A stretch of DNA of 64,000 nucleotides from Acutalibacteraceae bacterium. Its GTDB lineage: Bacteria; Bacillota; Clostridia; Oscillospirales; Acutalibacteraceae. Position numbers and translations under genes: made by a program. Within the stretch, counting starts at the first letter, position 1. Every line of letters starts with the position of its first letter. Positions 700 through 64,000 of the stretch are shown here, piece after piece. The notes under the pieces were generated by a model. It saw nothing but the letters and a program-made list of their open reading frames with translations. It searched no databases and was not told the DNA's origin. The DNA lies in assembly GCA_045645885.1 (NCBI GenBank), contig JAZRJR010000073.1, positions 9,824 through 73,823 on the forward strand. The letters run 5' to 3'.

Positions 700-725
700 T
701 TTCATTATCTCCTTTTCTGTATATA

Positions 726-1937
726 TCATTCATCCCAGTGCCAGGCACCGCACCTGCACTGTTCATTGATACCGAATAAATCCCAGATTCTGAAGAGCAT
801 TAGATAAATAACCCTTGCTACGCCCTTTTTATGACAGATGCAGCTGCAATAATCGCATGCATCATATTCAGCCATGTCATAGAATCTGTAGCTGTATAAG
901 CTGTAACCATCACCTAAAGAAAGCAGAATGTACGCTGATGAGTTTTCCTTGAAGGATGCCATATCTATATTAAGCTCAACGTCAACTCTGTAAACACCAA
1001 CCTTGTCAATTGTTACTGCATCAGTGAAAGCGGTAATATTACATTCCTTTGTGCGGATTTCAGTTTCACCGTTCATTTTTGTGATTTTATATGTAATGCT
1101 TGTAAGAACATTATTTTTTTCAACTGTGTAGTCTATGAGATCGATTCTTCTGTAAGGACAGTCGATCACTTCAACAGGCACTTCAACACTTGCATCACAG
1201 TAAACGAACTCAACCGATGAGCCCATTTCCTCAGGAAATTCTCCGTCAGTGTATACGCTTTCAGCAACAAGCGGTCTTCCGTCAAGACTGAGGGGACCGC
1301 ACCAGCCTGTATATTCCCCCTGTATAATCGGAGCTGTTTTTGTTGTACCGTCAGCATATTCAATTATCATTTCCTTGCCTTCGAAATAATCCCAGTAGTA
1401 CATTTTATGATGAAACGGTTCAAACTCACACGCCGGTCTGATGCTTTTTATATAGCTTTCAACAATTTTACATTCAACTTCGCCTTCAAAACGCTTATTA
1501 TTGCCTCTTTCAAAGCTGATTGTAAGCTCAACATTTACGGGTACAGTATCGTCACCGTTTTCAATTGCTTTTTTGCAGTCCTCATAGCTTACATTGAATT
1601 TGGGACCTGAATAGCTTGTAGTGCTCGGTATTTCGTCAAATAATCTGTCAAGCTCAACGGTTTTTCCGTTTGAAAAGCTTACAATAAGATTATCGTAGTA
1701 AAAGCCTGAAGCAGGCGTTGAGGCATGAGGGTCATTCTGAAGAACTATAATATCTTCGTTAAGAACATCATGAAGCTTTTCGATTTCCTTCATAGAAATC
1801 ATAACACCCTCATCAAATTTTACCGATTTGATTTCAGGGTTTATGAGGCTGAGAGCTGCAAAGCTCTGAAGTGGTACAATGCTCATAAGCATAAGTATTG
1901 CGAAGGTGGTTGCGAGGATTCTCCTCAATTTTTTCAT
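726..1937 (-). CDS. Secreted protein of unknown function with a Cys-rich amphipathic C-terminal tail.
   Basis: ORF track 726-1952. The first ATG is part of the RBS (ATGGAGGTAAAAACAATG), so the start is moved to the ATG at 1937 (MKKLRRILATTFAILMLMSIVPLQSFA/A, a signal peptide). C-terminus: CDYCSCICHKKGVARVIYLMLFRIWDLFGINEQCRCGAWHWDE. No family recognised by eye. Confidence 0.8.
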   Translation of the reverse strand: MKKLRRILATTFAILMLMSIVPLQSFAALSLINPEIKSVKFDEGVMISMKEIEKLHDVLNEDIIVLQNDPHASTPASGFYYDNLIVSFSNGKTVELDRLFDEIPSTTSYSGPKFNVSYEDCKKAIENGDDTVPVNVELTISFERGNNKRFEGEVECKIVESYIKSIRPACEFEPFHHKMYYWDYFEGKEMIIEYADGTTKTAPIIQGEYTGWCGPLSLDGRPLVAESVYTDGEFPEEMGSSVEFVYCDASVEVPVEVIDCPYRRIDLIDYTVEKNNVLTSITYKITKMNGETEIRTKECNITAFTDAVTIDKVGVYRVDVELNIDMASFKENSSAYILLSLGDGYSLYSYRFYDMAEYDACDYCSCICHKKGVARVIYLMLFRIWDLFGINEQCRCGAWHWDE

Positions 1938-2001
1938 TGTTTTTACCTCCATATTTCTTTTAAGGGATATTCGACACTTTGCACCTTTTTGTTGAATAAA
2001 T

Positions 2002-18871: not shown

Positions 18872-18904
18872 ACAAAAGCCCCCACCTCATAAGAGATGGG
18901 GGCT
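18872..18904 (-). terminator. Intrinsic terminator of the giant gene.
   Basis: Minus strand reads AGCCCCCATCTC-TTAT-GAGGTGGGGGCT followed by TTTGTCGTG, about 40 nt after the stop codon at 18942-18944. Confidence 0.75.
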
Positions 18905-42900: not shown

Positions 42901-45900
42901 ACAGTGTTGTGTGAGTATACATATACTCTGTAGTAATCAGCAATGTCAGTCCATGTAACTGCTTCTACGCCCTTCTGAACTTCGAGACCGTCGTCATCAA
43001 GAGCAACATCACCGTTTTCGTCAAGAACGAATTCTGAAGCAGCTGCGTTGATAGCAGGAGCGAGATACTGTTCAATAGCTTCTGATGAAGTTGCTTCCAT
43101 GAAGCCGTAAGGTGTTACGTCGATGCCAACGATAGTGTCAACGAGAGGAAGAACTGTGTTCAATGTGCCAGCAAGATCTTCACCGCCAAGGAGACCCACA
43201 AGGAGACCCATAAGCTCGTTCATTGTCTGGTCGTTGAATGCATAAGCCATAAGGAGTTCATGAACAAGGTCCTTAAGACTCTGACCTTCCTTATAGCCGC
43301 CTATCTTTTCAAGGAGCATCTTGATGAAGTCAACTTCTTCAAGCATAGGAATGAGATCGGGAATAACTGTGAGTATTGAGCCGTCAAGCTTCTTGATAGC
43401 TCTTCTGAGCTTACGCTTTGTAAGTCTGTCGCTGATTTCTTCGTACGCATATTCTACCTTTTCAAATGACAGGTAGTCCATAAGCATTGTTTCAACATCA
43501 TATTCGTTGAAGTATGTAAGAAGAACTACGAAGAGCTGATATCTGTTTTCGCCTGTGAGTGCCTTAAGAATTGTGTCAAGGATTTCACCTTCCTTGATTT
43601 CAACTCCGAAGGATGAAAGGAGGCTTGTGAGCATTTCACCACCGAGGAGAGTCTCTGAAATAATCTGTACAAGAGTATCTGCACGGCTAGCTTTCACGCC
43701 CCAGATCTGATCGTTATTGTCTGCACCGTATTCACGGATTGTGTCTACCTTTTCGATCTTACATGTCTTTTCAAGGATCCACTTGAAGATGCCGATGATT
43801 TCGCCTTCACTGTTATCCTTATCGAGACCGAAGGTCATAGGAGTCTTATTCTTTTCGGGAACAGCCTTAAGAGTGAACTGCTTATCCTTGCCGTTACCGT
43901 TTGTAGGAGTGTGAGTTGCGCCATCAAGGTTATCCTTGTTGAAGTAAACTGTTACAAGCTCATCTTCTGTTGCGCCTTCAACCATTTCCTTGGGAATTGT
44001 GTATTCGTAAGCATAAATCCATGCATTTGCATTGTCAAGAAGACCCTGGAGAAGAGTTTCGAGACCGTTTGCAGTGAGAAGTCTTGTGATAAGACCGTTG
44101 TCACCGTAGAAGCCAGTAACTTCTGCAATGTTGTTGGGCTTCATAAGGTTGTCGTTGATAAGGTCAGTGATAAGACCAACGATATCAAGAGCAACAAGCT
44201 TGTCATCTCTGCCTTCGATTGCTACTTCCTTAGCTGTGATGTCGTTAACCATGTCAACGAGAGTAAGAAGAGGAGCAACAAGCTGTTCAACAGCCTGAGC
44301 AAGACCGTCTGAGTAGATGAAGAATACAAGTTCGGGAACAAGGTCAACAATTGTCTGAATGGGAGTATTAACGATCATTGAGATGAGAGCGTCAATATAA
44401 CCTTCAACAATCTGGGCTGTAAATGCTTTATTATCAAGAGCTGCAAACTCATCCTTGTCAATGAACTCATAGTCACCCTTGTATGCTGACTGAGGATCGT
44501 TCATATACTTAGCAACGCCAAGCATTTCGAAGAGAGGAATGATGAATCTGTCGTAGCCGTCACCACCTGTGATGTGGATACCGTCAAGAGCTACGAGGTC
44601 AGCTTCTGTAAGAAGGAATCTGAGTACAGGTGCGAAGGGAGCAAGAATCTGTGATACGAGTGCGAGAACATCATCATAATCTTCGATACCGAATGAATCA
44701 GTATTCTTGAGCTTGAGTTCGTACTGGTATTCATAAACGATATTGCCTTTTTCGTCTGTCTCTACAACATATGTGTCAGCAATAGCTTCTTCGTCAGCTG
44801 CTGCTGTACCGCCATTGACATACCAAGTGCCATATGCATCGGTCTTTGTTGTGCCGTTTGCATATACGGGGATCTTAGCACCGTTTTCGTCGAGAGCATA
44901 TACGGGAATGGGCTTGCCATTTCCGTCAACTGCATAGAGGTTAAGTGTATCTGCTTCATGAGCAGGTGCAACATAATCTGCTGCAGGCTCCTTGGGAGCT
45001 TCATACTTCTTGATTGACTTGAAGTATTCATATGCATCTGCCCATGTATCGAGCTGTTTACCATCATCAGTTACAAAATATTCAGCAAATGCATCGTTAA
45101 CTGCCTTGAAGTCATCCAGTTCAACGTCTACGCCTTCGATGATTGTGGGAAGAAGACCTACGATCATTGAAACTGTTGCGTTACCGCCGAGAAGATTTAC
45201 AAGGAGTTCTACAAGCTGAGTTGCGAAGCCATATTTGATTTCTTCTTTGCCAAGTTCATTAGTTACCGTCTTGTCCATCATAAGATCGGCAAGGAGGTTG
45301 TGTACCATTTCTTCAAGGTTTGCACCCTGGAGCTTAAGGTCGCCGAGAGCACCTTCGGGAAGCATGCCGAGAACTGCAGGAACGATTGCACCGATAAGTG
45401 AGTCAAAGTCTTTAGGAAGCTTTTCCATCTGTTCCTTATCGAGACCGTTACCGTTTTCACCGTAAACGAGTTCGTTGTTTGAATCGATTTCGTTAAATGC
45501 ATCTTCTGCGTCTGTCTTCTTAACACGAGGATCTTCATACTCGATTTCGTACCATGAAAGAAGGTCGATAAGAAGTCTTTCAAGAGCTTCGGGATCTTCA
45601 AATACACCGTAGAGGAGTACTGTAAGGAGATAGTTGCTGTCTTCTTCAGTAAGAGTTGTCATTGCAGCCTTGCTGAAGTCGAATTTGAGAAGTCCGCCGA
45701 TAAGGTCACGGATACCGTCTGTGAATACGATATCATTAAGAAGGTTGATGAGAACAGACTCACGGTCAACTGTGTATTCAGTTGCTGTGCAAGGCCAGTA
45801 TGAACCACTGCGTCTGTCAGCAGCAATTGTGATTACCTTCTTTGTGCTGCCTGCACGCCATGCTGTTGAAGCAAGGTTGAGGAAGATAAATTCGGGATCA

Positions 45901-48900
45901 ATGATTGATTTGAGATCTGTACCGTTAATTGATACGCCTTCAAGAAGCTCAACAATGATCTGCTTGAATGTGTAAGCTGAACCTGCACCGCCTGAAAGAT
46001 CGAGAGCTTCGTCGGGTTCTGTAAGTGAAGCAACTGCTGCCTCGAGACCTGACTGACCGCCTTCGTTTTCTTCGATCATATTGAGAGCTACAGCTGCAGC
46101 TGCAGCGCCAACAGTTGACTGATCTGCGGGATCAGTGCTGTCTGATGTTTCGCCTGCCTTGTCGTTCATATCCTTGATGAGGCCTCTGAGAAGATCCTTA
46201 ACAATACCCATAAGGTCGATATCATAGATGCTTTCAAGCATATCAGTGATTGTTGTTACAGGTACTATAAGGTTATTGAGGATAGCATCAATACCGTCAC
46301 TTTCAACAAAGTGAGCAAGGTAGGGAATAATTGTAAGGAGTGTGTTTACAGGTCTTGCGCAGAGTGAGTCTACGAGTGCAAAGATTGCATCTGTAAGAGT
46401 TGTGAGCATAATCTTTGCGCCATCATAATCGATTGAGCCGTTGTCGTTATAAACAGCAGCCTTGTAAGCTGTATAGTCAACAAGTGTTGCTTCGGTTGCA
46501 CCGCCGCCAAGGAAGTAATTACCTTCGTTTACAATAGGTGTGCCGAGATTATCTGACCAAGTACCGTCAGCGTTCTTGTTTGCACGGAGTGCGGGAATGC
46601 CGAGAGCCTTGATGAGAGGAAGAATGAAGCCTTCATAACCTGCTGCGCCGTTAATTGTAATCTTATCATAAATTACAAGTGAACCTTCAGCGAAGAGAGC
46701 TGCGAAAATGGGAGCGAGAGGCTTGATGCAATTCCAGAGAAGATCTACGAAACCGTCACGAGTATTAAGACCCCATGTAGCGTTGATCTTAACAGCAGTC
46801 TTCTGCTTAGCAGGTTTAACATTCTCCATTACAGCTTCAACGAGGTGCTTAACTTCTTCGTTTTCTTCTGTTTCAGGATTGTCAGGAGTTGCAATCCATT
46901 CAGTCTTGCCTGCTTCCTCGAGCCAGAGTTCTGTGTCTACGAGCTCGCCTGCTGCGTTCTTAACTGAATATGTGTACTTATATTCTGTAACCTTCTTTGT
47001 GGTTGTTTCACCGGTTGCCTCGTCAGTTACCTGCTTGTCAACCTCGCGGTCAGTCTGCTTCTGAACCATGTCAGCAATTACAGCAATTTCTGCTGTATTT
47101 TTGTCATTGTCGTGGTCGAGTGTTGTAAGACCCTTTTCGTCAGCATAATATGTTGCAGTAACTTTTCCGTCAGCATCTTTAACAACATACTGATACTTAG
47201 AGTTAGCCTTTACAACATCTGACCAATTAAGAGCCTTAAGAGCCTTTTCCTGTTCATCGGTAAGAGTTTCTGCAGCAGGATCAAAGGTGATAGATTTATC
47301 TTCTACTGCCTTTACAATTGTTTCTCTGAGGTTATCGATATTCATATAGAATGAATACGGTGTAAGGTCATAGCCTGAACCCTTGAGAACAGTAAGTACA
47401 ATATTTACAATCTGAGCTGAATCTTCACCGCCAAGGAGACCGATAAGCATATCCATAATGCTGTTGAGACCCTTGTCATCGTAGAGATATGTTTCAAATA
47501 CCTTATCAACGATCAGCTGAAGAGTAATTGTGTCGTCAGTTGTGATACCGAAGAGCTTGTTGAAAGCACCGCTTTCGTCTTCTGCTGTGTCAGGATCATC
47601 TTCCTTAGCAAGCATATCCTTAAGAAGTGAAAGGTTGAGAATCTTACCTACGAGTGCATCGAGGTTGTCGATTGTTGCTGAAGTCTTAACACGTGAGATT
47701 TCAGTTACCTTTTCTTCGCCAGCACCGAGATTCTTGTTGTGGTCAAGAACTTCTTCGTGTGTATCATAGCCTGCATCTTCATAGAATTCGAAGTGGTTTT
47801 CTGATGTAATTTCAATTAATGTTACGGGCTTAATTGTGCCACGTGTATCACCTGTAAGAAGAGCAACAATTAAGTCAACAAGTGCATTCGGATTTTTGAA
47901 TACATTTGTGATGATTTCGTCAAGAAGTTCTGCTTCGGTTGCTGAGTTGTCGTCTGTAAGGTCGTAACCGAGAAGTGAACCGATAACTTCTTTGAGTGTT
48001 GTGTTTGTAAAGATGAAGTCAAGAAGGAACATAAGAACTTCAGCCTTACTTACATATACAGTACCTGTTCCTGATACATATACATAATCAGCATATTTTC
48101 TCTTAATATAATCGTTTGCTTCATCTTCATGTTCGCTTACGGGATCACCGAGAGCTGCAATTGACTTAAGGAAGTTCTTAACTGCAGTTGCTCTAAGTGT
48201 TCTTGCATCAGCCTTGAGTGATTCAATCTGATCCTTATTTGCAACTGCATTTTCCTTGGTGAGATCAGCAGCCATCTTGTTCTTAGCCTTAGCCTCAAGC
48301 TCCTTATCCTTGTCAAGGAAGAGAACTATACCGTACATGCCTTCATACGGATCATTTCCGCCTAAAACGCCGGAAAGGTCAAATTCAAGGTTTGCAATAA
48401 GAGCAAGAAGTGAATCAGTAAGTGAATATACATTATCTGAAACAATCTGATCTCCGTTTTCATCATACTTAACGAATTCGTTGAGAGCATTCTGGAAGTT
48501 CTCCCAGTCGTCTGTTGCAAGAGCGTCAATAAGACCTGATGCAATGTTGTTGATATCAAGGTTAATGATATCTGTAAGACGGTTTGTTAATGTTGTTACA
48601 GGAATAAGAATGTTTGTAACGAGTGTTGTAATACCATCTGCATAGAGGAAATATGCAAGAGTGGGAAGTGCATTTGCAAGTGTTTCAACGGGATACTTAC
48701 AAAGAATTTCAACAAAGTAGAATACATAGTTTACAATGTTCTTTACTGTGTATCCAACACCTGCAGGACTCATCTTGCCGTCTACATAAACTCTGGAGAG
48801 ATACTCTTCTTTTGTCATAAGGTGCTCGATCTTCTGACCTTCAGCATCCTTTGTTTCAAGAGTATTGAGCTTGTCACCGAGCTGAGCGATGATTGAGTCA

Positions 48901-51900
48901 AGACCGAATGCACGGAGAAGAGGAAGGAGGTAATCGTCATAACCGAAGCCGCCTTCGATATTAAGAGTGTGTCCGAAGAGACTGAGTGCGTCACCGGCAA
49001 AGAGTGTTGAGAATACGATTGCGAAGGGTTCAAGAACACTCCAGAGTGTGTTAACCATAGCAACCTTCTTAGCTGTGAATTCATCTTTTCTTACAGGTTT
49101 GCCGTCTGCATCCAAGATGTACTCAGCTTCGTCAATACCCCATGCCCATTTGCGGTCTCCGAGTGTTTCAGAGTATACAGGAGTAAGGGTATAGTAAACA
49201 TCTTTACCCTGAGCATCTTTTTGGTCGCTCTTAAGAACTTTAAGCTGCTGATAGTCACCATAATATGTAACTACTTCACCTTCAGCATTTGTGTATGTAT
49301 ATTCATACTTGCCTGCATCATTTGTCTTCTGCGGATAAGCAGTAGCATATACTTCAGTTGCATAAACGATTTCCTTAACTTCGTTACCGCTTGCATCGAG
49401 CTTAGGTTCACCGTTTTCGTCAAGAACAGTTACATACTTATCTTCTGTAGCGTCTCTGAGTGTATATGTTACAGCATTTGCGCCTTCACCGACAACATAA
49501 GCCTTAAGACCTGCCTCTTCAAGCCATACGGTCTTGGTTTCTGTTACTTCGCCGGCATCGTCTGTAATATCATACTCATACTTATATGCGGTTATATATT
49601 CACCGTTTTCGTCTTTAAGCTCTTCGTCGCTTGTTGTCTGAATCTGAACAGCCGCCTTCTTGGGTGTGCCGTCTTGATTCTTTACAAGCTCGCCGTTCTT
49701 GTCAAATTCATAAAGCACATAGCTGTGATTGTTATAAATCTGAACGAATGTAAGCTCTACTTCGTCGGCTACGGTGATTACTCCGTCACCGTTTATATCA
49801 TCCTTCTGGTCATTGAAGTCCATATCAAGATAATACTTATCGTAATCGCCTGAAGCACCGGGAACGATCTTGCCGTTTTCTTTATAGAAGCCGTATGTGA
49901 AGTATTCGTAGAGAGGAGACGGTTTACTCTTGTCGGGCTTTCCGTTTTCATCAAGATTGTAAATAAATGCATCGAAGGTCATATCGAAGCCAGCAGCCTT
50001 GAGAGCCTGCTGAAGTGTACGTGATGTGCTTGTGCTACCACCTGCACCGAAGAGACCTACAATAAGATTTGCAATCCATGTGAATGAGTCATCCTTAAGG
50101 GCATAGTCCATAGCAAGGCCCTTAACAAGACCCCAGAGACCGTCATCGCCCTTAATACCGTTTACAAGGTCACCGCCGATAATACCGTTATCGGTAAGAA
50201 TTGAGAGAATTTCAGGAAGAGCTTCTCTTACTACATAGTCAAGGTTTTCAATTGTTTCATTTACATCTTCTTCAGTGAAGAGAATTTCATTATTATTTTC
50301 TTTGTCAATAACTGCAAAGGTACCGTCATTCTGTACAATCGCATTTTCGTTATTTGCATAACCGCTGTGTACGATACCGTAATCAGTCATAGCCTGATCC
50401 TGAATAGCCTCTGTGAGCTTATTATCAAGATTATTGATGAAATCATAGTAGTAGAGATTACCTTCATCAGGATTATAGTCGCTGAAAATGTCGATAATAA
50501 TACCTGTAAGGATATCTACCTTCATGCCGCCTTCAGCATCTGCTGCTTCGCCTGTAAGGTTGTTTATAACACCGTTAACGATATTGTGAACACGCTGTCT
50601 GTATTCAAGTTCTTCGTTTTCATCATTTGCATTTGTAGCGTTGAGAATTACATTACCCAATACAGTAGCAATCTGTCTGTTAAGAACCGTTCTTACGAGT
50701 GTGATTAAGAATTTACCTGCTGAACCGTTGAAGCTTGTCCATTTCTTGTTAGCATTAACCGCACCGCTGTCGTCAGTACCTACTGCACGGTATGTGATTT
50801 CTTTTGTGATATCCGATGATTCAGCTGCGATTTTTGCAAAGTCAAGCATCTGCACATTGAATCCGCTGTTATCTTCGCCAATATTTGCAAGAACATTGTT
50901 GAGAAGATTTTCAAGGTCGAGGAAGCTTTCAATAAGTGCATTAAGATCGAGAGTAATAAGTCTTGAAAGAACGGGATCTACGATGTCAAGAAGCTTAGTT
51001 ACGGGAGCAATAAGGTTTTCAACCGCAATCATAAAGTTTGAACGCTTCTTATCATCATCGGGATCATTATAGATATAGAGAGCATATGCAAGATTAGGAA
51101 TCTTCTCGAAGAGAACTGTAAGAGGTGAATCAACAAAGCCCTTAATGCCCTTGGTTTCATCACCAACAAGAAGCTCTCTGATAGCATCAAGAAGAGGACG
51201 AAGCGGTGAATTGTATGTCTGAGCAAACTTCTTGCCGCCTTTTGCTGTAAGTGCGTCTACATCTACATTTGTATCCTTTGTCTTGTCGTTGTTGTATACA
51301 TAGTTGTCGAACTGGTTCTGGCTCATGCAAGCACTGTTAAGACCAAGTGCTTCGAGAATTGCAACGATTGATCTTGAATAACCGTTATTACCCTGGAGCT
51401 CGAGTTCATCAAGAAGGAGAATATCCTGACCTGAAAGGAGGAATGAAAGAATGGGGTTAAGGGGTGAAAGAAGGTCACAGAGATATTCAACAAAATTGTT
51501 AATTCTTTCTGAGAAATCTTCAGCTTCTACGAACCACTCAAAGCCGGCTTCATAACCGATGTCAGCCCAAGTCATTTCGTCCCTGATATATTCGTATACC
51601 TGTGTATCGCTGTATGCATTTGCATTGTATCCGGAAATACTGCCTGTACGATGAATATAATGCTGTCTTTCAAGCCACTGTGCAAGCTGTGTGTTGCCTG
51701 ATGATGATACACTTGAAGAAGTGGTAAATGCCTGATAGAAACCTGCAGGAGTAAGGTCGATTCCGATATCTGCAAGTGTGTTTGCGATCTTATTTACAAT
51801 ACCATTGGGATCACCGAGGAGACCACCAAGGAGACCCTGATCGTAGTTGAGCTTGTATTCTGTTTCCTTTACGGGGTTGCCTTCATTATCGAGAACAACA

Positions 51901-54900
51901 TCACCGTTTTCGTCAAGCTTGTCAACTTCTGATACTGTTGTTGAAACAACAAACTGACCTTCACGTACCTGGCCTTCACCGTTGCCGGCATCAACATAGT
52001 ATACCACGCCGTCTACTATGATCTGTGTGCTTGTTGTTGTAGCAGGAATCTTTTCACCTGTTGTTTCGTCAGTAGCATAGATAAGTTCTTTTGTACCAAC
52101 AAGAAGGTCTACAAGGAATTCGATAAGTGCATTACTGAATACAAATTCAGAAAGAATTTCATCGAGACCTAAGGCTGTGCCTGCATTTGCAGCTGCCTTT
52201 GCTTTTGCGATTACAGTTTCAGCACCAAGAGTCTTAAGAAGATCTACGTTTAAAATTGTGTCTTCAAGTGCAACAAGAAGTGTTGTTGCAAGTGAGCTGA
52301 TAAGCTTATCTACATTTGCAACAGCAAGGTCTGCCTTTGCAATAAGATCTGCGTCTGTGTATGTCTTGTTTGCAAGCTCGGTAGCACTCACCTCGCTGTT
52401 TGCTTCACGAAGTGTTTCTTCAAGATATTTACCAATCTGGAATGTTGACTTGAGGTTACCGGCTAAATCTTTTGTAACATAAGACTTCCAACTGTCACCT
52501 TCCCAATAACCGAATCTCTGAGCGTCATCAGCTACGTCATAGTAGTCTCTGAAATTCATTGTGTAGTCATTAAGAAGACAAATAAGAATAGCTACAATTG
52601 TGTCAGCCTGACCGTCAACAATACCTGCAATCATATCGAAGGTGTCGCCGAGAAGACCGCCGAGAAGCGGCTCAAGAACATAAAGAGTACCGTCGTCCAT
52701 AAGCCATCTGAGAAGTGTAAGAAGAACGTCACCGGAGTCAGTGTCGATATGATAGTTTGTCTTGGGTGAAAGCGGCTGAATTGTAGGAAGGGTTGTTCTT
52801 ACGACCTTACCGCAGGCCATAAGTCGGTTAGTCGGCAGGATAAGAGGACACGAACCCGTGTTTCCATCCCATTCGAGCCAGTCCAGGAAGCCGTCGCCGG
52901 CAAGACCGTATAACGTTCCTGTAAGCAAGCCGGTCTGAACATATTTTTCGTTATGTTTTATGTATTCGATGACGTTACCGTCTTCATCCGTCTTTGCCAG
53001 ATATTTACTCTTGGTTGAATCGGTTGGAGATTCACTTGTTACTTTTGCACCAAGAAGCATATTAAGAAGACCTGCGCTGCCCTGCTTTGTTACATCAGGT
53101 GTAAGACCAAGATCTCCGATAAGATTTCTGAGAGCAAGATCCCAAAGCTGAATATCTGTAAGTGAAGCACTAACAAGGCTGAGTATAACTTTAAGATTCA
53201 TATCCGTAATCTTGGGAAGAATCTGATCATATTCAAGAGCAGCAACAAGATTGGGAAGAAGCTCAAGAATTGTTTCAACAGGCTTGTTGAAAAGTCTCAT
53301 ATTGATGAAGTTGATAATGGGTTCAAGAAGCATCTGCCAAAGCTCAACACCATAGCCGTCTTCAGCTACGATACCTGCGCACTTGCCGTCAAGAGCATGG
53401 ATATCTGTATCACACGCTGCAGAAACTTCACCACCGGAATAATATCCGTAACCGTCTTTGTTGTTGGGATCGGCAAGAGCCTGAATACCAAGAAGACGAT
53501 AAAGCGGCATAAATACATTGTCATAAAGCGACTGGCCGGTTGAGTCAATTGTAATATCAAAGTCCATAAGTGCAACTTCGACCTTCTTAGCATTACCTGT
53601 TACAAGTGAGGCAAGAACAGGAGCAAGACCTGATGCTGCAGCGGCCATTGCATGATAAAGGTCATCAGCATTTTCTGTATGCCATGCTCTGTCCTGATCA
53701 AAGTATACGGGCTCGCCGTTTTCATAATAGATAGGCTCTGTACCCTTCCATACACCGTCAGGAATACCTTGATATGTTGCGCCGTCTCTGGGGTTGGTCC
53801 AATTATCGTTCCAATATGATCTGAGTTCCTTACCACTACCATAAGACGAACTATCATGAGGTGCTGTCTGAAGAGCATAAAGAACTTCAGTATAGTCATA
53901 GCGTGAACCCATAAGGTCACCATTGAACATCTTATACCAAATTACATCCGTGTCATCACAGATGTTACCAGCAGATGTACCATTCTTTGATTTGCCCCAG
54001 TTTGCATAGAACATATGAGGCATGGTAGGAAGCGCTCTACGGAGAGTTTTGGGAAGATCCTGGTAGTATTTCGGAAGAATAACCGCTACGCCACCTGCAA
54101 GGCTATAAACAGCAGGACCTACCGCACCTTCAAGAACTGTGAAAATAGTATTAGGAAGTAAACCGCCATAGAGGATGTTGGCGATAAGACTGATAAGGAA
54201 TTCGCGAAGATTCTTTACATCGTCACCCTTCTTGAAGGTTTCCTTTGCATGCTTTACACCATCTTCATCAGTGAACGCAGGAATTTCATAATCTCTCTTC
54301 CACTGTCCAAGCATATTAGTCTTGACAGGAACAATTTCTAATTTGGTTGTGGGGTGTATCTCAAGATCTGCCTCATCAAGATAGAACTCATCTGTTCCGT
54401 TCTTGTATGTATAAGCAAACTTACCGTAAGCATCAGTCTTCTGCTTCATTGTAAGATTTTTGAGAAGTATACCAAGGTCCTCTGAAACGAGAATTCTGTC
54501 TAGATCTTCTACAGCTAAGTCCATAAGGTCAGCAATTTCACCTCTGGAAATGGAGCTGTTCTGTGCAAGCTCAACCTCATTAACCAGTTCCATGATGTCT
54601 TTATAATTAAGCTTACCTACACAAGTAGCCCACATATATGCATTATAAGCAGGTGCCTTGCCTTTGTGGAGAATATACTGAAGCATTGTTTCATCAAGAA
54701 CATTATAGGGGTCTCCGCCATATTCTCCCTTGTGTGCAGCCTGAGGAGCCTGTGCTGTATTCTCATAAGCGAGATTCTTCAGGTTATTGAAATATGTCTT
54801 GAAAGAATTTGCGTCACTATATGCTCTGGTAGCACTTTCGTAGGTTTCAAGGAATTCATCTTCTGTCATATCACCCTTCTTTGAGTTGGGTTCATACGCA

Positions 54901-56813: not shown

Positions 56814-56933
56814 AAAATTTTCCTCCTTATATGAAAGAATTTTATATAACATTAATAGATTTCCCCATGATAAACACCCTTACACCCTGAAAAAGGGTGC
56901 AAAATGCCCATAGAGACACCTATAACTGTACGT

Positions 56934-56962
56934 AGTATACCATTTTTGGACAAGTATTTCAA
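56934..56962 (-). promoter_or_regulatory. Strong sigma-A-type promoter TTGAAA, 17-nt spacer, (TGg)TATACT, dedicated to the giant gene.
   Basis: The reverse complement reads TTGAAATACTTGTCCAAAAATGGTATACT. It predicts a 5' UTR of about 110 nt containing a CACCCT-TTTTC-AGGGTG hairpin and the AAGGAGG RBS. Confidence 0.55.
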
Positions 56963-57039
56963 TATAAATTTTAATAAATTATGTATTTCTGCGTTTTGCA
57001 CAGTCTGTTTAGTGGCTTTTTGTGTAGATTAACCATTGT

Positions 57040-57078
57040 CAAAAATAACAAATCAGAGTGCCAAATTAATGCACTCTG
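57040..57078 (-). terminator. Second terminator-like hairpin in the intergenic region between the two giant genes.
   Basis: Minus strand reads CAGAGTGC-ATTAATTTG-GCACTCTG followed by ATTTGTTATTTTTG. Confidence 0.5.
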
Positions 57079-57149
57079 CACAAACAAATGTATCTTGTGG
57101 TATACCTGTTTCCATACCCAACCTGTTGGGGTTTTACAGCTTGTTCACA

Positions 57150-57195
57150 AATTCCCACCAAAGAAAAGCTCCTCTCCAGAAGGAGAAGAGCTTTT
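57150..57195 (-). terminator. Intrinsic terminator of the upstream gene (at least 2,260 aa).
   Basis: Minus strand reads AAAAGCTCTTCTCC-TTCT-GGAGAGGAGCTTTT (one mismatch) followed by CTTTGG, 15 nt after the stop at 57210-57212. Confidence 0.6.
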
Positions 57196-57209
57196 GGGTT
57201 TGATTTGAA

Positions 57210-60200
57210 TTAACCGTAAAGGTGTGAGGGATCGCTACAGCACTTGAATTCACCGGTGAGCATCTTGATGATCTTGTGGAAGAATCTGAAGATTGCACCC
57301 CAGATGTTGTCACGGTGACAAGCACATCCGCAGCCTCTGATTGAAACTGTACCAACGATTTCGCAGTCAGCCTGAACGTCCTTAGTGATTTCAACCTTAT
57401 TGGCATTTGTAACTGTAATAACAATGTTGTATTTGCCCTTAGCTACTTCAAATGTTGTTACGCCCTGAGCGTTTGTATACTTGGTTGTTATGTAGTTACC
57501 GCCTGAGTAGATGTCAACCTTTGCGTTCTGAACAGCATTTCTGCCGTCTGTAACTGATACCTTGATGGTTGCATTCTTGCTCTGTTCGGTATTACCGCTG
57601 TCGTCGTCATCTGAACCTGAATCGCTCCATACAAGTTCACGTTCCTCTTCGTAGTCACAACGTATGCACTCAAAGATTACTGAACCCTTCTGAGTGGGAG
57701 TTGCAGGAACTCTAGTGTTTGCTTTTTCTACAAGCTTATGGCCGAGAGGACCACCCTGTTCATGCTGGAATGTGTAATCACAATACTCACACTTTTCAAG
57801 GATGCTTTCACCCTTTGTACATGTTGCGCCAACTGTAGCAGAGCTGTCAATCTTCATTGAGTGAGCAGTTGCATCGAACTGTGCATAATAGATATATGCA
57901 TTGTTGTTAGCGTCTTTCTTTTCAAGCTTCCATCCACTGAAGGTGTAATGATTGTTGTTATCATACTTCTTAGTGGGTGTTGTGCCTTCATAAAGATCTG
58001 CACTGATTTCAGCAAATGTCTTATCAAAATAGTAAGCAATTGTGTTATTTGCATCATAGCCGAAGATTACAGTATACTTACGGGCTGTTGATGTGTAGAT
58101 AGCAACAAGTTCAATGTTTGCTTCAACAACTGCATCAGCAGCAATCTTTTCTTCTGTGCCCTTGTATGCCCAGTGGCTGAATGCGTAGGTGTATTCATCA
58201 TCCTTATCCTTTGAAGGAGTGATTACTGAAATTTCTGCAATCTTTGTGCCTGCCTTAACAGTCTTTGTTGAGATTGCTGTTGTTGCTGTCTCATTAGCAT
58301 AATACTTAACAGTGTATTCAACTACGCCGCCAACTTCTTCTGTTTCACCGCAGAGTGTACAAGTCTTAACGCCGTTTACAGGTTCGCCCCATGTGTGATC
58401 GCCAAACTTGCCTTCAACTGTGTAGCTGTAATCACAGCCGCTACATGTGTAAGTCTTGATTTCCTTCTCCTTACAGGTTCCTGCAGTTGCTACTTTTTCT
58501 GAAATTGTGTGTTCAACAGCTGTAAAGTCTGCTGATGTTACAACATCGCTGTAAACTGCATTGAGTTCAACCTGCTTGCTCCAACCCTTGAAGGTGTAAT
58601 GGAAAGTGCCATCAGGAGCCTTTGTGGGAAGCTTATTAGCAGGACAAACTGCTGCTTCACCTGCTTCAACAGTTGTTTCGTAAACAACATCGCCTGTTGC
58701 ATTGAGGAACATAACTGTGTAGGTTCTTACTTTTTCTGCATATACGGGAACAAGTTCAAGATCTGAATTTACAAATACAGGAACTATTGATTCATTACTC
58801 TTTAATGCCCAACCGATAAATTCGTATGTCTTTTCCTTATCAGCTGCCTTTGCAGGACCGTTTACAGGAAGTATATCACCAAGAAGTGTGCCTGCAACAA
58901 TGTTGTATGCACGGGTGTAAACATTACCCTTTGCGTTGTAGTAAACGATTGAGTATGTTACGCCTTCAGATGTAGTAGCATCACAGCCTTCTCTCTGACA
59001 ATGTCTTACACCGTTTTCATCGGGATCGCCATAACTATGTGCAATCTTTGTGCCGGGAACAACTCTGTCATAGGTGTAACCACAATCACAAGTATATGTA
59101 TCAACTCTGTCTGCTTTACAAGTTGCTGCTTCCTTTACTGTTACTTTAAAAGTATGTGCTGTGTGAGTGAAGTTGGGAGTTGTATAAATATCACTGTAAA
59201 CAGCCCTGAGCTCTTCAGCCTTGTTCCATTCCTTGAAGGTGTAGTGATACTTTGTATCAGCTTCCTTGGTAATATTCTTAAACTCCTTATTGGCAGGCTG
59301 ACCTGCAGTTACTTCTTCTTCACCGATATATGCGCCTGCATTGTAAGCATATACAACTGTATACTTTCTTAATGAGCCTTCATAAAGAGGATAAAGCTTA
59401 AGGTCTGATTTTACAGCTGTGTTTTCAGCATCAAGCGCTGTTCTTGTATCTTCGCCTTCTGTGGGAGGTGCTACTGTTGACCAGCCGATGAAGGTGTATG
59501 TATACATCTTATCAGCAGCCTTTTCGGGAGCAGCAGGAAGAACTGTGCTGAGAACGGTATCTTTATAAACCTTGTAGCTATGTGTATAAACCTTGCCAAT
59601 TGCATTGAAATATGTGATTGTGTAGCTTACTAAGCCTATGTCTGCTACAGCTTCATCACAGTTTGCATTCTGACATTCAAAGAGTCCTGTTGTTTCGTTG
59701 AGAAGCCAATTATGTCCGTTTGCTGTGTTTTCGACTTCAGCTGTGTAGCCATAACCACATTCATCTTTACAACCATAATATACTACCTTGTTTTCAGTAC
59801 AGGTTGCTTCTGTTACAACACGTTCACTTCTGTTGTGCTCAACAGCGTCGAATACAGGTGTTGTGTAGATGTTGCTTTCCACAGCTCTGAGCTGTTCTGC
59901 CTTATCCCAGCCCTTGAATGTGTAATGATATACATTATCATAAGCCTTTGTGGGAGTTTCGAAACAAGGACGAGCAAGAGAACCTGCCTTCACAAGGAAG
60001 GTTTCGAGGATATTCTCAGTATCATAAGCATATGTTACTGCATAATATCTGTCTGCCTTTGTGTATTTTGCTTTAAGTTTAATATCTGAACCGTTAATTG
60101 TATATGTGTTGAATGCTTCGGCTTCTTCAGCGTCATTAGTGAAAATCCAACCTACGAATTCATAAGAATAATGAGTTGAAGCTGCCTTTGCAGGCCCCTT

Positions 60201-63200
60201 AGCAAGATCATAAGTCTCGCCGTTCTTGAGATAACCTGTCTTGCCGATTTCAGTTATGCCGTCTTCTGCATAATAAGTGATTGTATAATTGATCTGCTTT
60301 TCAGCATAAACAGCGTAGTAAATTGCATCACCCTTAACTTCGATGGGGAACTTAACTTCGTTGCCGTCTTTATCTGCCCAATGTGAGAAGGTGTAAGTGT
60401 AGGTTGCATCTGCTTCCTTTGCGGGAACAGTTACTGCATCAGCAGCGATTGATTCGCCAACAAATTTAGTAATTACCTTAGTATTAAGCTCAGTAGCCTC
60501 TTCACCGTTAACGAACGAAACTTTTGCTTCAACAGGAGGTACATAACCGTCTAACTTTTTATTTTCGATGTCACCGCATCTTGAACACTTGTAGTCCTGA
60601 TAGTATACGGTGATTGTTTCGCCTGTTTCTTCATCGGTTTCTTCTTTTGAATAAACTTCACCATCGATCTCATAAGCGTGGCCGAGTGCAGGAATTTCCT
60701 TAGCAACGGGAGCTTTCATTGGATCATATTCACCTTCACCGATCCAGCTTTCACAAACTGCACAAGTGAGCATTTCTGAACCCTTGTCTACACAAGTCGG
60801 CTCAACTATTGTCACATATTTACCTGCAACGTGACCGAGCGCAGGAATATATTCTGTTGTTTCCACATAACCGCAATAACGACAAGTCTTGCCCTTCTTA
60901 CCAATTTCCTGACAAAGAGGTTCAGAAATTATCTTTACGCGATAGAAATTATGGCCGTTTTCTGTGTCAACAGAAATCTCTTCAGTTACCCTTGCTGTTT
61001 CAAGACCGCAGACTGTACAGTCTCTGTGCTTTGAACCAACAGTCTTACAAGTGGCCTGCTGATCAATTACCCATTCATATTCATCTGTGTCTTTGCCGTC
61101 TTCACCTTTAACCATCGCATAAGTGTGTTTACCTGTTGCTTTAAGGTGTCCGAGATCATCAGCAGTGAGAGCTTCCCATGTGCCTTCTTCTTCATCTTCA
61201 GCAGGTTCAACAAACTTCTTAGCCTGAGCAAGGTCATCTGCAGAGCTTGTGGGATAAAGAACAAGTGTTAAGCCGCAGTTGTTGTCGCAGACATATGTTC
61301 TGTAACCGTCATTTACACAGTCAGGTGCTGTGTCAACATAGTTTACTGTAAAGCTGTGACCCTTGGCAGCAATAGTTGTTACAGCTTTTCTGTCACCGCA
61401 GAGTGTACAGATGTCATATTTTGAACCGTCGGCCTCACAAGTTGCAGCAATAGTATATTGTCTATAGCTATGCTTACCCTTGATTTCGAATACCTTTGAT
61501 GTCTTGTTGCCGTGCACATCAATAGCTGTTACTGTGTGAGTACCTTCTGCTTTACATACATACTCGCCGTTAACAAGAGTAACCTCTTCACCGTCGATGT
61601 AGGCCTTTGTGCCTTCAATATCATCAGTTATATTTATAGTAGCTGTACTACAGAACTCACTGCCGTAACCATCACCTGTAACTGTAATTGAAGGAGCCTT
61701 TGTACCATAGCTGATTGTACCTGAGCTGAGGTAACTTACGTTTACTTCACCAAAGCCTTCACGGTCTGAAAGTCTGATGTAAATGATATACTCCTTGCCA
61801 TCTTCAAGATTAAGATTTGACACAATACCTGTTGCATTCGCATTGTAGTGTGCAAGTATTTCATCAACAGCTCTGTCGATTTCAGCCTTGAGAACCCTAT
61901 CGTTACGCATAAGAGCGCTGTATTCAACAAAATCAAGGTCATATTCATCAAGCACTGCCGCAAAAACATCATTCTTTGCTGCTTCGTAGTTGTAAATTTC
62001 TGTCCAACCTGAAATTACTGTAGTAAGATCTTTGATTTCTTCAGTTGAAATGAAATATTCCATTTTGCCAACGCCACGACTGAGCTTAGCTAAGGGGTTA
62101 GGCATTGTGCGTGTACCGACATCGTTTGCATTTGCAATGAGGAAAGTATTTGCAGAAACATAAGTAATCTCGTTGTAATCGATCTTACCGAAATCGCTGC
62201 TGTCCCATAACTTGTTACCAACATAGAGCTTACCTATAGGAGCGTCATTATCTTCAACGATGGGAATCTCTACATTGTAATCAATCTTGTTACACTCATC
62301 ATCCATACACTTATAGTTAGCGAAACCGGGAACGGTGCATGTAGGTTCTGCAACAATTTCATAAACTACTTTTTGATGCTCTTCTTCTGTATATGTAGGC
62401 TTAAGAGAAATCACACCATTAACAAGAAGAGTTTCATTGATTATATCAACTTCTGCACCAGTAGCGATATGAGTCCATTTCTCGTTGAGCTTATAGTGAT
62501 GCTCATCTGTTGCGGGTTTATATGCTTTAGATATAAATGAACCATTGTAATCTGCAATATTTCCACCGAAGGGAATCTTAACTGTTTTTATTATGTCTGT
62601 GCAGTCTTCATTATAGAAGTTTACTGTAAACTCCTGAGCCTTTCCTTCAAAAACAGGATAGAAGTAAAGGTTTTTGCCCGGCATTCTGTCGCCACGAACA
62701 AAAATCACTTCATTTTTTGCAATGTATTCTGCCGGCGCAGAAAGTTCAATCTGAGCAATAGCTGCCTGTTTTTCAGGCTCTGTTAATTCACTGTTACTGT
62801 TTATTTCTTCTATTTTTGTTACATAACCATATTCAGGATTACTTAAAAGATCCGCCGGTACTATAATAATATTACCATCAGCGTTAAGTTGACGACCGAA
62901 TTCGTCACACAGCACCCAATGCTTAAACACCCACTGATATCCTATTTCAGGAACTTCATAGCTAACAGGTTCAGTGAATACAGGTTGCTGAATCTTTGCA
63001 TTGTATCTGTATACAGCTGTTGAATGAACATCTTTGTTGTCTTTTAACCATGTAACTGTATATGTCTGATAAGATCTTATGTAGGTTGCTGTGTAGGTTG
63101 CATCACCATGACAAAACTCTGAAACATCAGGTGACCATGATCTGAAACTATAACTAAACTCTACATCATCATCTTTAACAGGATTTTCAGGAATAACTAT

Positions 63201-64000
63201 TTTATCACCATAATGATATGTATTTTTTGAAATTATTTCCTGTTCACCGTCTTCATTTTTTATGTCGTTAAGGAATGTAATTGTGTAATCCTTATAAACA
63301 GTTTCGAACTGTGCTGTAAGATAGGTATCACCGCTGAACACATCTTCACCCGGAACAACGATATTACCGTTGCTGTCTTGCCAGCCCTTGAAGTTATATG
63401 TACCAACCTCATCTTCAGCTCTTTCAGGAAGAGCATTTGTGGTTGCGCCGTCCTCATTTTGCACAAGGTTTTCATAAGCAGGGATTTTTTCATCTACAAA
63501 CAGACCGTTTTCTTTACCGTCAAGCTTATAGATGAGTGTTCCGTCATAGTTATAGTAATAAATATCGGCATAATCTTTCTTTTCATAGATTGCCTTATAT
63601 TTTGCGTCACCGACAGCAATACCGATAACTGCAGGAGACCATTCCTTGAAGGTATAAAGTGAATCATCCGTAACAATTGTCTTGGGAATATCATATACCG
63701 TGCTATCACCTTCAACCGTATCACCAACTGTGGGAGCAGTAACCGATGCACCGTGACTGTAAAGAGTTGAATCAGCTTTGATGACTTTTCCGTCTATATC
63801 GAGGAACTCGATAGTGTATTCAGCGAGTATGGGGTTACCGTAAACTGCATAGAGCTGTGTGTCGCCCTCAATCATAATATCTTTAAGCTGATAAACGTTA
63901 CCCTTCTGAGGATCACCGATTCTCCAACCCTGAAGGAAGTATCTGTAACCACCATAAACATAGTTGTTAAGGATTTCAGGATCCACGGGAGCTTCGCCCC
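57210..64000 (-). CDS. Very large secreted or surface protein, C-terminal 2,260+ aa only. Layout: Listeria-Bacteroides (Flg_new-like) beta repeats interleaved with CxxC-containing motifs, a prealbumin/CarboxypepD_reg-like domain, then a Cys-rich amphipathic tail.
   Basis: The ORF track gives 57210-63986, but the frame stays open to the window edge (GEAPVDPEIL...), so the N-terminus lies outside the window. It has many units of the form Y[TS][IV].[FY]......G......P...P.K....Y.[FY].F.[GEHS]W, and many motifs such as ATCEADGSKYDICTLCGD and ATCKTVGSKHRDCTVCGLE. Near the C-terminus come SDSGSDDDDSG, then ATIKVSVTDGRNAVQNAKVDIYSGG...GKYNIVITV, then GCGCACHRDNIWGAIFRFFHKIIKMLTGEFKCCSDPSHLYG. Confidence 0.88.
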   Translation of the reverse strand, partial: GEAPVDPEILNNYVYGGYRYFLQGWRIGDPQKGNVYQLKDIMIEGDTQLYAVYGNPILAEYTIEFLDIDGKVIKADSTLYSHGASVTAPTVGDTVEGDSTVYDIPKTIVTDDSLYTFKEWSPAVIGIAVGDAKYKAIYEKKDYADIYYYNYDGTLIYKLDGKENGLFVDEKIPAYENLVQNEDGATTNALPERAEDEVGTYNFKGWQDSNGNIVVPGEDVFSGDTYLTAQFETVYKDYTITFLNDIKNEDGEQEIISKNTYHYGDKIVIPENPVKDDDVEFSYSFRSWSPDVSEFCHGDATYTATYIRSYQTYTVTWLKDNKDVHSTAVYRYNAKIQQPVFTEPVSYEVPEIGYQWVFKHWVLCDEFGRQLNADGNIIIVPADLLSNPEYGYVTKIEEINSNSELTEPEKQAAIAQIELSAPAEYIAKNEVIFVRGDRMPGKNLYFYPVFEGKAQEFTVNFYNEDCTDIIKTVKIPFGGNIADYNGSFISKAYKPATDEHHYKLNEKWTHIATGAEVDIINETLLVNGVISLKPTYTEEEHQKVVYEIVAEPTCTVPGFANYKCMDDECNKIDYNVEIPIVEDNDAPIGKLYVGNKLWDSSDFGKIDYNEITYVSANTFLIANANDVGTRTMPNPLAKLSRGVGKMEYFISTEEIKDLTTVISGWTEIYNYEAAKNDVFAAVLDEYDLDFVEYSALMRNDRVLKAEIDRAVDEILAHYNANATGIVSNLNLEDGKEYIIYIRLSDREGFGEVNVSYLSSGTISYGTKAPSITVTGDGYGSEFCSTATINITDDIEGTKAYIDGEEVTLVNGEYVCKAEGTHTVTAIDVHGNKTSKVFEIKGKHSYRQYTIAATCEADGSKYDICTLCGDRKAVTTIAAKGHSFTVNYVDTAPDCVNDGYRTYVCDNNCGLTLVLYPTSSADDLAQAKKFVEPAEDEEEGTWEALTADDLGHLKATGKHTYAMVKGEDGKDTDEYEWVIDQQATCKTVGSKHRDCTVCGLETARVTEEISVDTENGHNFYRVKIISEPLCQEIGKKGKTCRYCGYVETTEYIPALGHVAGKYVTIVEPTCVDKGSEMLTCAVCESWIGEGEYDPMKAPVAKEIPALGHAYEIDGEVYSKEETDEETGETITVYYQDYKCSRCGDIENKKLDGYVPPVEAKVSFVNGEEATELNTKVITKFVGESIAADAVTVPAKEADATYTYTFSHWADKDGNEVKFPIEVKGDAIYYAVYAEKQINYTITYYAEDGITEIGKTGYLKNGETYDLAKGPAKAASTHYSYEFVGWIFTNDAEEAEAFNTYTINGSDIKLKAKYTKADRYYAVTYAYDTENILETFLVKAGSLARPCFETPTKAYDNVYHYTFKGWDKAEQLRAVESNIYTTPVFDAVEHNRSERVVTEATCTENKVVYYGCKDECGYGYTAEVENTANGHNWLLNETTGLFECQNANCDEAVADIGLVSYTITYFNAIGKVYTHSYKVYKDTVLSTVLPAAPEKAADKMYTYTFIGWSTVAPPTEGEDTRTALDAENTAVKSDLKLYPLYEGSLRKYTVVYAYNAGAYIGEEEVTAGQPANKEFKNITKEADTKYHYTFKEWNKAEELRAVYSDIYTTPNFTHTAHTFKVTVKEAATCKADRVDTYTCDCGYTYDRVVPGTKIAHSYGDPDENGVRHCQREGCDATTSEGVTYSIVYYNAKGNVYTRAYNIVAGTLLGDILPVNGPAKAADKEKTYEFIGWALKSNESIVPVFVNSDLELVPVYAEKVRTYTVMFLNATGDVVYETTVEAGEAAVCPANKLPTKAPDGTFHYTFKGWSKQVELNAVYSDVVTSADFTAVEHTISEKVATAGTCKEKEIKTYTCSGCDYSYTVEGKFGDHTWGEPVNGVKTCTLCGETEEVGGVVEYTVKYYANETATTAISTKTVKAGTKIAEISVITPSKDKDDEYTYAFSHWAYKGTEEKIAADAVVEANIELVAIYTSTARKYTVIFGYDANNTIAYYFDKTFAEISADLYEGTTPTKKYDNNNHYTFSGWKLEKKDANNNAYIYYAQFDATAHSMKIDSSATVGATCTKGESILEKCEYCDYTFQHEQGGPLGHKLVEKANTRVPATPTQKGSVIFECIRCDYEEERELVWSDSGSDDDDSGNTEQSKNATIKVSVTDGRNAVQNAKVDIYSGGNYITTKYTNAQGVTTFEVAKGKYNIVITVTNANKVEITKDVQADCEIVGTVSIRGCGCACHRDNIWGAIFRFFHKIIKMLTGEFKCCSDPSHLYG
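57850..60600 (-). repeat. Four tandem coding units of about 650-680 nt each: two Flg_new-like repeats plus one double Cys motif.
   Basis: The block Y[HT]YTF[KS][GE]W.K...L.AV.S..[YV]T...F....H......... [AG]TC......... Y.C..C.Y.Y recurs. Its Y.YTF.GW part is centred near 59920, 59238, 58593 and 57940. Confidence 0.75.

Follow-up and report, generated by a model that had tools for sequence, protein, structure and literature searches.

Giant surface proteins and the locus under study

How gut bacteria attach to particles, to their hosts and to one another depends largely on giant surface proteins, and, to our knowledge, almost none from uncultured Clostridia have been characterized. Among the closest described systems, the Giant1-5 proteins of Apilactobacillus kunkeei combine a signal peptide and internal repeats with a C-terminal end that is conserved, carries positive charge and has been proposed to attach them to the cell wall, and the neighboring genes for Giant4 and Giant5 co-diverge (PMC12863079). 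West-Roberts et al. reported RCC1-type giants from Oscillospiraceae and Clostridia proteins of 10,000-30,000 amino acids (aa) with Listeria-Bacteroides or YG repeats (bioRxiv 10.1101/2023.11.21.568195), and the ‘Hodor’ conjugative megaplasmids carry a surface module with proteins of >7,300 aa and about 2,642 aa (bioRxiv 10.64898/2026.02.21.707213). Here, we analyzed a stretch of 64,000 nucleotides (nt) from an Acutalibacteraceae bacterium (GCA_045645885.1, contig JAZRJR010000073.1, positions 9,824-73,823, forward strand; hereafter, the window), in which a gene for a giant protein is preceded by a gene for a large repeat protein. Comparative sequence analysis identifies the two as a real, conserved and hitherto undescribed two-gene cassette of uncultured gut Acutalibacteraceae/Oscillospiraceae. 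The genes are located as follows (coordinates refer to the window):

57210..64000, minus strand: upstream gene, 3' 6.8 kb (open reading frame [ORF] running in from the window edge, stop codon 57210-57212, 2,262 codons)
18942..56813, minus strand: giant gene (12,623 codons plus stop, ATG start at 56813)

Together, the genes occupy 44.7 of the 64 kb, in line with a first-pass annotation, made from the sequence alone, which had put this share at 45 kb and had described the upstream gene as a very large same-strand gene (at least 2,260 aa) open to the window edge.

The pair resembles each of the described systems in part. With Giant1-5 it shares consecutive genes for very large secreted repeat proteins, a basic C-terminal end, co-divergence of a pair and recombination that reshuffles alleles; it differs from them in having no sequence relationship, in lacking DUF5776/SH3b-like C-terminal domains, in ending in a short amphipathic helix, in the different, undetected fold of the giant and in its host, which belongs to the Clostridia rather than to the Lactobacillaceae. 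Like the giants of West-Roberts et al., the present one comes from gut Clostridia, exceeds 10,000 aa, is predicted to be extracellular and is built of repeats, but matches to RCC1, Flg_new, YG or dockerin are absent from it, and it consists instead of alpha-rich units of 480-820 aa without relatives in the PDB. The Hodor module likewise combines, in gut Firmicutes, a giant gene and a gene for a secreted protein of ~2,600 aa in one conserved module; its proteins, however, have S-layer/MBG domains, which are absent here, and are co-transcribed with their neighbors and accompanied by sortases and a dedicated Sec set, whereas the present genes are separately transcribed, lie in an apparently chromosomal housekeeping context and have no plasmid match. 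Clusters of giant surface-protein genes are already known, and the present pair shares none of their defining domains; a literature search found no paper describing this gene pair.

The two genes are conserved as a pair

Word-indexed protein searches gave few matches (4, 4 and 12), so family sizes taken from them are underestimates. A profile of the C-terminal tail of the upstream protein (described below) was run against 1.84 billion representative proteins, with the matches clustered at 50% identity, and was also scanned over one genome per GTDB species. The latter scan yielded 12 loci (L009-L020), all of them in metagenome-assembled genomes (MAGs) of Acutalibacteraceae, Oscillospiraceae or unclassified Clostridia. 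The first-pass annotation had proposed looking for the pair in other genomes. In 19 of 20 related loci from MAGs and gut metagenomes, the two genes keep their order and share a strand, with 300-680 nt between them, and this arrangement holds while protein identity across the pair loci falls to 27-50%.

The association is seen from either gene. Wherever there is room next to a homologue of the giant's N-terminus (4 matches in the word-indexed search), the upstream gene adjoins it (L001, L003, L004 and L005), and no related locus has the giant beside a different upstream neighbor. Starting from the upstream gene, all 10 GTDB loci with downstream room contain an uninterrupted same-strand ORF that begins 300-570 nt farther on and stays open for the remainder of the locus. 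This ORF exceeds 3,200 aa in nine GTDB loci (L009 and L019 are cut shorter), and the homologues are collinear with the giant over >3,000 aa at 32-45% identity; locus L018 stops at the contig edge with the giant's leader already visible. The most divergent upstream-family members tested, P0089 (2,869 aa) and P0110 (2,383 aa), are followed by intact genes called as 12,178 aa and 9,508 aa, respectively, both with the giant promoter, leader and signal peptide. In several metagenome assemblies (among L001, L003, L004, L007 and L008), the giant homologue is broken into 2-3 ORFs (for example, 1,162 + 1,786 aa in L001 and 9,030 + 771 aa in L007); in the window and L021-L023, a single gene is called. 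Frameshifts introduced during assembly of the repetitive DNA probably explain the broken ORFs, with real pseudogenization being possible.

The flanks change from locus to locus, with NIR_SIR, Flavin_Reduct or melibiase genes downstream and an ABC-2 pair or Rce1-like, GtrII-like, SHMT or RF-1 genes upstream. Because the flanking genes vary, the conserved unit is exactly these two genes, and no conserved third gene, such as a sorting or secretion factor, was found at the related loci. Comparison of these loci thus indicates that the pairing is not accidental. In two loci, the gene directly 5' of the upstream gene encodes an Rce1-like (CAAX/CPBP) intramembrane protease (L010 1620..2381 and L011 1474..2313), an arrangement of interest because the upstream protein's tail ends in ...KCC..P; given the other neighbors at other loci, this may be a coincidence. 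The divergence of the two proteins is correlated across loci (rho 0.83-0.87); shared phylogeny would yield such a correlation in any case.

A plasmid origin was considered and rejected: tblastn against 72,556 plasmids and a PHROG search gave no match, and the context appears to be chromosomal. The neighboring genes are housekeeping genes, and the hallmarks of a plasmid- or phage-borne surface module, including S-layer/MBG domains and adjacent sortases, were not found.

Because the linkage is conserved, cooperation of the two proteins in one structure is the most economical, if unproven, reading. We consider the best explanation to be that they form an envelope-anchored pair acting together in one surface coat or appendage, and assign it a probability of roughly 0.55. 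The same loci bear on another explanation, namely that the two are independent, non-cooperating surface adhesins that remain neighbors only through common descent in one bacterial family or through a tendency of large surface genes to cluster in a variable region of the genome. This we regard as unlikely, though far from negligible. Confinement of all 20 loci to Acutalibacteraceae/Oscillospiraceae or unclassified Clostridia would suit it, as would locus L020, where the upstream gene and its conserved promoter occur without an adjacent giant, but it accounts poorly for adjacency, order, strand and 300-680-nt spacing that persist despite repeated rearrangement of the flanks and identities down to 27-35%, or for a giant that is never seen beside another upstream neighbor. 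The L020 gene (3041..10093, tail CSCSCHKNTFWGMIFRFFQKIVRFFGGKDCC) retains both the promoter and the leader of the upstream family.

Separate transcription signals

The region between the genes and the end of the giant gene contain the following signals:

57157..57194, minus strand: terminator 1 of the upstream gene (13-bp stem, -20.7 kcal/mol, T tract)
57041..57078, minus strand: second terminator-like hairpin, GCAGAGTGC...GCACTCTG, with a T-rich tail
56934..56962, minus strand: giant promoter, TTGAAA-17-TGgTATACT, with an extended -10 (TG) and 10/12 consensus positions
18877..18904, minus strand: giant terminator (12-bp stem, 8 G-C pairs)

The first-pass annotation had given the two genes separate transcription signals across a gap of 357 nt. 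That distance was based on the longest-ORF version of the giant gene (18942..56852, 12,636 codons). The ATG at 56813, however, sits 8 nt after AAGGAGG (56828-56822), and all homologues start there with MKVGKK; the spacer is 396 nt long because this is the true start. The signals themselves lie where they had been placed, namely 2 hairpins at 57150-57195 and 57040-57078 and a near-consensus promoter of the giant's own (TTGAAA-17-TATACT). The first hairpin spans 57194-57165, with its T tract ending at about 57157, and the second spans 57078-57054, with a tail to about 57041 and about -12.7 kcal/mol for the scanned segment containing it. Overall, the region holds 5 terminator-like matches versus 0.6 expected.

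These elements are conserved in position. Directly after the upstream stop codon, all 15 loci compared have a strong hairpin (-15 to -27 kcal/mol) followed by a T tract, and the hairpin sequence differs between them; a second hairpin, 90-150 nt past the stop, is present in most of these loci (11 counted) and is less consistent than the first. Every aligned locus, even the most distant (L023), retains the giant promoter, the -35, extended -10 and +1 regions of which are invariant over at least 17 loci. The upstream gene has a conserved promoter of its own, TTGACT-17-TGATATACT, followed by a leader of ~240 nt with the invariant blocks GATACTAACTAAAAGTGACTC, ACGGTCAGGTCAGGGAC and TAAGTTTCGTT. This promoter and leader lie beyond the reach of the window and were seen in L009-L020 and L001, ~250 nt 5' of the ATG (e.g., L010 2730..3058). 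Both promoters are strong, of the sigma-A type, and carry an extended -10.

The claim of separate signals is thereby supported by the terminators in 15/15 loci, the near-invariant giant promoter, the upstream gene's own promoter and the terminator of the giant gene, and the sequence comparison supports well the view that these are 2 adjacent yet separate transcription units. The genes could still, in effect, form one operon coupled by read-through of the hairpins, the giant's promoter being minor. They lie close together on the same strand, the second hairpin is the weaker one, and intrinsic terminators are rarely 100% efficient. Against this stand a hairpin of -15 to -27 kcal/mol with a T tract after every upstream stop, mostly followed by a second one, and -35, extended -10 and +1 sequences whose invariance would be unexpected of a nonfunctional promoter; we consider a single operon very improbable. 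The separate promoters and terminators also speak for the independent-adhesin explanation.

Directly past the giant terminator, a strong one, lies another promoter (TTGAAA-16-TATACT with TG, 18857-18830), which serves a NIR_SIR-like gene and genes for a FecCD-type ABC transporter.

The giant gene has a nearly invariant leader

56814..56927, minus strand: 5' leader of the giant mRNA (invariant 5' block AGTTATAGGTGTCTCTATGGG, a ATAGGGAATCCTAT-type element, a UUCUUUC anti-Shine-Dalgarno [anti-SD] sequence and the ribosome-binding site)

The first ~20-40 nt of the giant transcript are identical across loci whose proteins share 27-45% identity, the invariant block AGTTATAGGTGTCTCTATGGG extending to ...GCACCCTTTTT in most of them. 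The leader elements, at 56890..56927 and 56840..56870 on the minus strand, occupy the same positions in L001-L005, L009-L019 and L021-L023, and the leader motif occurs once per locus, at the leader position only. Covariance models of Rfam 15 matched neither this leader nor that of the upstream gene; the hits were at chance level (E 0.11 and 0.73) and fell well short of the gathering scores.

The AGTTATAGGTGTCTCTATGGG block and the ATAGGGAATCCTAT-type element are complementary to each other, and both are in addition palindromic (ATAGG-N4-CCTAT). The predicted fold consists of a long stem between the invariant 5' end and the ATAGGGAATCCTAT element plus an anti-SD hairpin, and the long-range stem is paired in 93% of cells versus 46-66% when slid. 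No compensatory changes were found among the aligned loci because both sides of the stem are invariant. The leader is compatible with a role as an RNA structure, which is unproven, and since its elements are also DNA palindromes, action as a palindromic DNA operator is possible as well. Processive antitermination was considered as a further role and rejected: with ~5 weak terminator-like sites on the coding strand in 38 kb, there is no particular need for it.

The giant protein is built of divergent alpha-rich units

56813-56724, minus strand: Sec signal peptide of the giant (signal peptidase I-type, AXA-type site)
53867-18945, minus strand: 19 divergent repeat units (480-820 aa), every one containing a core of ~160 aa

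An N-terminal region of ~980 aa that is unique precedes the 19 units, the cores of which contain motifs such as G-x-GY-x-x-AIIPLLEA and NL-x-YFI. The protein is Leu/Ala-rich with 0.3% Cys, and AlphaFold models of 2 units are mainly helical with small beta elements (predicted local distance difference test [pLDDT] 63.5 and 66.5), in keeping with the helix-rich, Cys-poor character attributed to it by the first-pass annotation. Sequence searches of the giant against Pfam, NCBIfam, PHROG and the PDB gave no usable match, and Foldseek found no match in the PDB for either unit model (best E 0.44 and 0.75, template modeling score ≤0.13). On these models, the unit appears to be an alpha-rich module whose fold has no detectable relative. 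RCC1 (PF00415) repeats were not found, the sole Pfam matches being sub-threshold EF-hand-like ones; an EF-hand assignment was rejected, as these matches are weak and just one strict EF-hand loop occurs in 12,623 aa. Beyond the signal peptide, a hydropathy scan of the giant revealed only moderately hydrophobic, charge-containing 19-mers and no credible membrane-spanning segment.

The upstream protein belongs to a family with Flg_new repeats

The 2,262 residues of the upstream protein encoded in the window are identical to residues 597-2858 of P0021, a full-length upstream protein of 2,858 aa with an N-terminal signal peptide, which supplies the N-terminus that the first-pass annotation had proposed to recover. 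Flg_new-like repeats and Cys motifs had also been expected. The protein is beta-rich, with Flg_new (InlB B-type) repeats, and contains 2.3% Cys and, by motif count, about 9-10 C-x9-C-x1-3-C modules. The window fragment matches Flg_new (PF09479) with an E value of 1e-13 and 51.6 bits and the full-length P0021 with 47.6 bits, both above the Pfam gathering cut-off of 27 bits, which places the protein in PF09479; one family member is labeled “InlB B-repeat-containing protein” by NCBI. A CarboxypepD_reg-like domain precedes the tail; the homologous C-terminal fragments P0005-P0007 carry an annotation as CarboxypepD_reg (PF13620). A hydropathy scan of the window part revealed no membrane-spanning segments.

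The protein thus resembles the Flg_new/InlB B-repeat (Listeria-Bacteroides repeat) surface proteins of gut Firmicutes and archaea. Unlike other PF09479 proteins, its family adds C-x9-C-x2-C modules, a narrow length range (2,185-2,869 aa for 60 long members), a WVWVAP motif in the signal peptide and a CxCxCH...FRFFHKIIK...CC tail; no Pfam or NCBIfam model covers these modules, the motif or the tail. The conserved form of the signal peptide is ...SCWVWVAP.KAEA, followed by the AXA site. WVWVAP is nearly invariant; the preceding Cys is usual, and not invariant, being replaced by A, S or V in about 9/60 members.

Both proteins end in cationic amphipathic helices

57213..57332, minus strand: upstream tail CGCACHRDNIWGAIFRFFHKIIKMLTGEFKCCSDPSHLYG, a C-terminal, Cys-flanked amphipathic helix
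18945..19016, minus strand: giant tail TLNWFQRIIKKIKEFFAKIFGIFG, preceded by an acidic run and conserved in 11 close homologues (P0009-P0019)
726..1952, minus strand: unrelated secreted protein of 408 aa with the C-terminus ...CDYCSCICHKKGVARVIYLMLFRIWDLFGINEQCRCGAWHWDE

The profile of the upstream tail matched 92 clusters; 60 of these exceed 2,000 aa (2,185-2,869 aa), and most of the others are fragments. The tail occupies the extreme C-terminus in nearly all matches, with the consensus CxCxCH(R/K)..(F/L/I)W..IFRFFHKIIK..TG...CC..P, and it defines a family of ~2,200-2,900-aa proteins. The consensus of the giant family is an acidic run followed by (S/T)LNWFQR(L/I)I.KIK.FF.KIFGIF(K/G). In each protein, the tail contains the most amphipathic 18-mer, with a hydrophobic moment (muH) of 0.76 for the giant (~12,600 windows) and 0.69 for the upstream protein, both values exceeding those at the C-termini of the 14 other ORFs in the window. 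The tails have a net charge of +3 to +4 and 5-6 aromatic residues in 24, and the giant tail was modeled, with low confidence, as a free helix. CxCxCH and CC bracket the upstream tail only.

The first-pass annotation had stated that both proteins end in the same kind of tail. This stands insofar as both tails are cationic, aromatic-rich amphipathic helices; alignment of the 2 tail profiles with hhalign was not significant (probability 8%), and the likeness therefore holds for physical character and not for demonstrable homology. The lack of demonstrable homology between the tails would suit independent adhesins.

In their physical character, the tails match a PBP5-type helix. Escherichia coli PBP5 has a C-terminal amphipathic helix of 18 aa that anchors it on the outer face of the membrane (PMC2909392). 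Like PBP5 and PBP6, both proteins of the pair are Sec-exported (with signal peptides carrying AXA-type sites), lack transmembrane segments and end in ~18-24 residues that form a strongly amphipathic helix. Unlike the PBPs, they show no homology to them, their cargo is 7 to 30 times larger and their membrane binding is predicted. The Cys/His clusters flanking the upstream tail, which are absent from the PBPs, may bind metal or form disulfides. Lipoprotein anchoring was rejected because the lipobox-like Cys is conserved in neither family, that of the giant being absent in L012-L017 and that of the upstream protein replaced in about 9/60 members, as noted above. Neither C-terminus has an LPXTG-type sorting motif or a hydrophobic segment, and Pfam searches found no SLH, CWB2 or SH3b/DUF5776 domain in either protein.

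The helices might serve as docking modules rather than as envelope anchors. A 3-4 spacing of hydrophobic residues, as is usual where helices pack together, the equal length of the two tails and their extreme conservation next to divergent bodies would favor docking, but the charges (+3 and +4) disfavor mutual pairing, and L020 retains the tail without a neighboring giant. The 408-aa protein, for which Pfam and NCBIfam gave no match, speaks against docking as well: its C-terminus consists of CSCICHKK, an amphipathic helix and CRC, i.e., the layout of the upstream tail, a sign that such tails may be of general use among the secreted proteins of this organism rather than docking sites reserved for the giant. 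We therefore consider docking improbable. The occurrence of such a tail on a third secreted protein fits a general anchoring module.

Giant alleles appear to be exchanged at the signal-peptide boundary

Locus L003 (positions 1..1424) is 97.4% identical to positions 58147..56724 of the window, a stretch that takes in the upstream gene's 3' end and the spacer and continues to the last signal-peptide codon of the giant. Identity collapses exactly past the signal-peptide coding region, where the giant N-terminus of L003 is 35% identical to that of the window and 77% identical to that of L013. The N-terminal 1,000 aa of the window giant are an outlier: they share 31-37% identity with every other sequence, compared with mostly 45-86% among the remainder, in which L019 and P0004 are likewise distant. 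Together, the switch in identity between L003 and L013 and the outlying window N-terminus point to replacement of giant alleles by recombination at the signal-peptide boundary. The near-invariant DNA of the promoter, leader and signal peptide would serve as one homology arm.

A model of the pair and its implications

If the 2 proteins act together in one surface coat or appendage, they would, after export, be held at the envelope by their cationic amphipathic C-terminal helices, which would lie in-plane in the outer leaflet of the membrane, as in E. coli PBP5, or bind anionic wall polymers, with the variable N-terminal parts projecting outward. Both proteins have conserved termini and long, repetitive, fast-evolving bodies. 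Ligand binding or adhesion would likely fall to the Flg_new protein, with the giant as the long structural element, and the invariant leader would probably control or stabilize expression of the 38-kb monocistronic giant mRNA.

Several points weigh against such a joint structure. For a protein of 12,623 aa, anchorage by an amphipathic helix may seem weak, and because the tails are not significantly similar, a common sorting route lacks support. The structure models of the giant units are of moderate confidence only (pLDDT 63-67). Part of the synteny and of the correlated divergence reflects shared descent, all loci coming from a single bacterial family (Acutalibacteraceae/Oscillospiraceae or unclassified Clostridia), and L020, the most distant of the 12 GTDB loci, has a glutamine synthetase gene (glnA) downstream in place of the giant.

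A more specific proposal, which we offer tentatively, as possible rather than expected, is that the locus specifies an undescribed envelope structure composed of a new alpha-rich fold and a Flg_new/Cys protein, with a new class of amphipathic-helix anchors, one of them CxCxCH/CC-stapled and shared with other secreted proteins, and with a giant mRNA that depends on an ultra-conserved leader of a new type, either an RNA structure or an operator. As far as the database searches indicate, the tail motif and the fold of the giant unit are new to Pfam, NCBIfam, Rfam and the PDB.

With about 46.5 kb of coding sequence, the pair has stayed linked in at least about 15 lineages at the species level, and the giant offers a protein of >12,000 aa without a recognizable domain. 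Its leader stays invariant over 20-40 nt while the proteins drift to about 30% identity, and allele replacement starting at the end of the signal peptide would bear on how giant surface genes diversify. Finally, the new C-terminal motif, present in 92 clusters and outside Pfam and NCBIfam, may be a new mode by which Gram-positive bacteria retain exported proteins.

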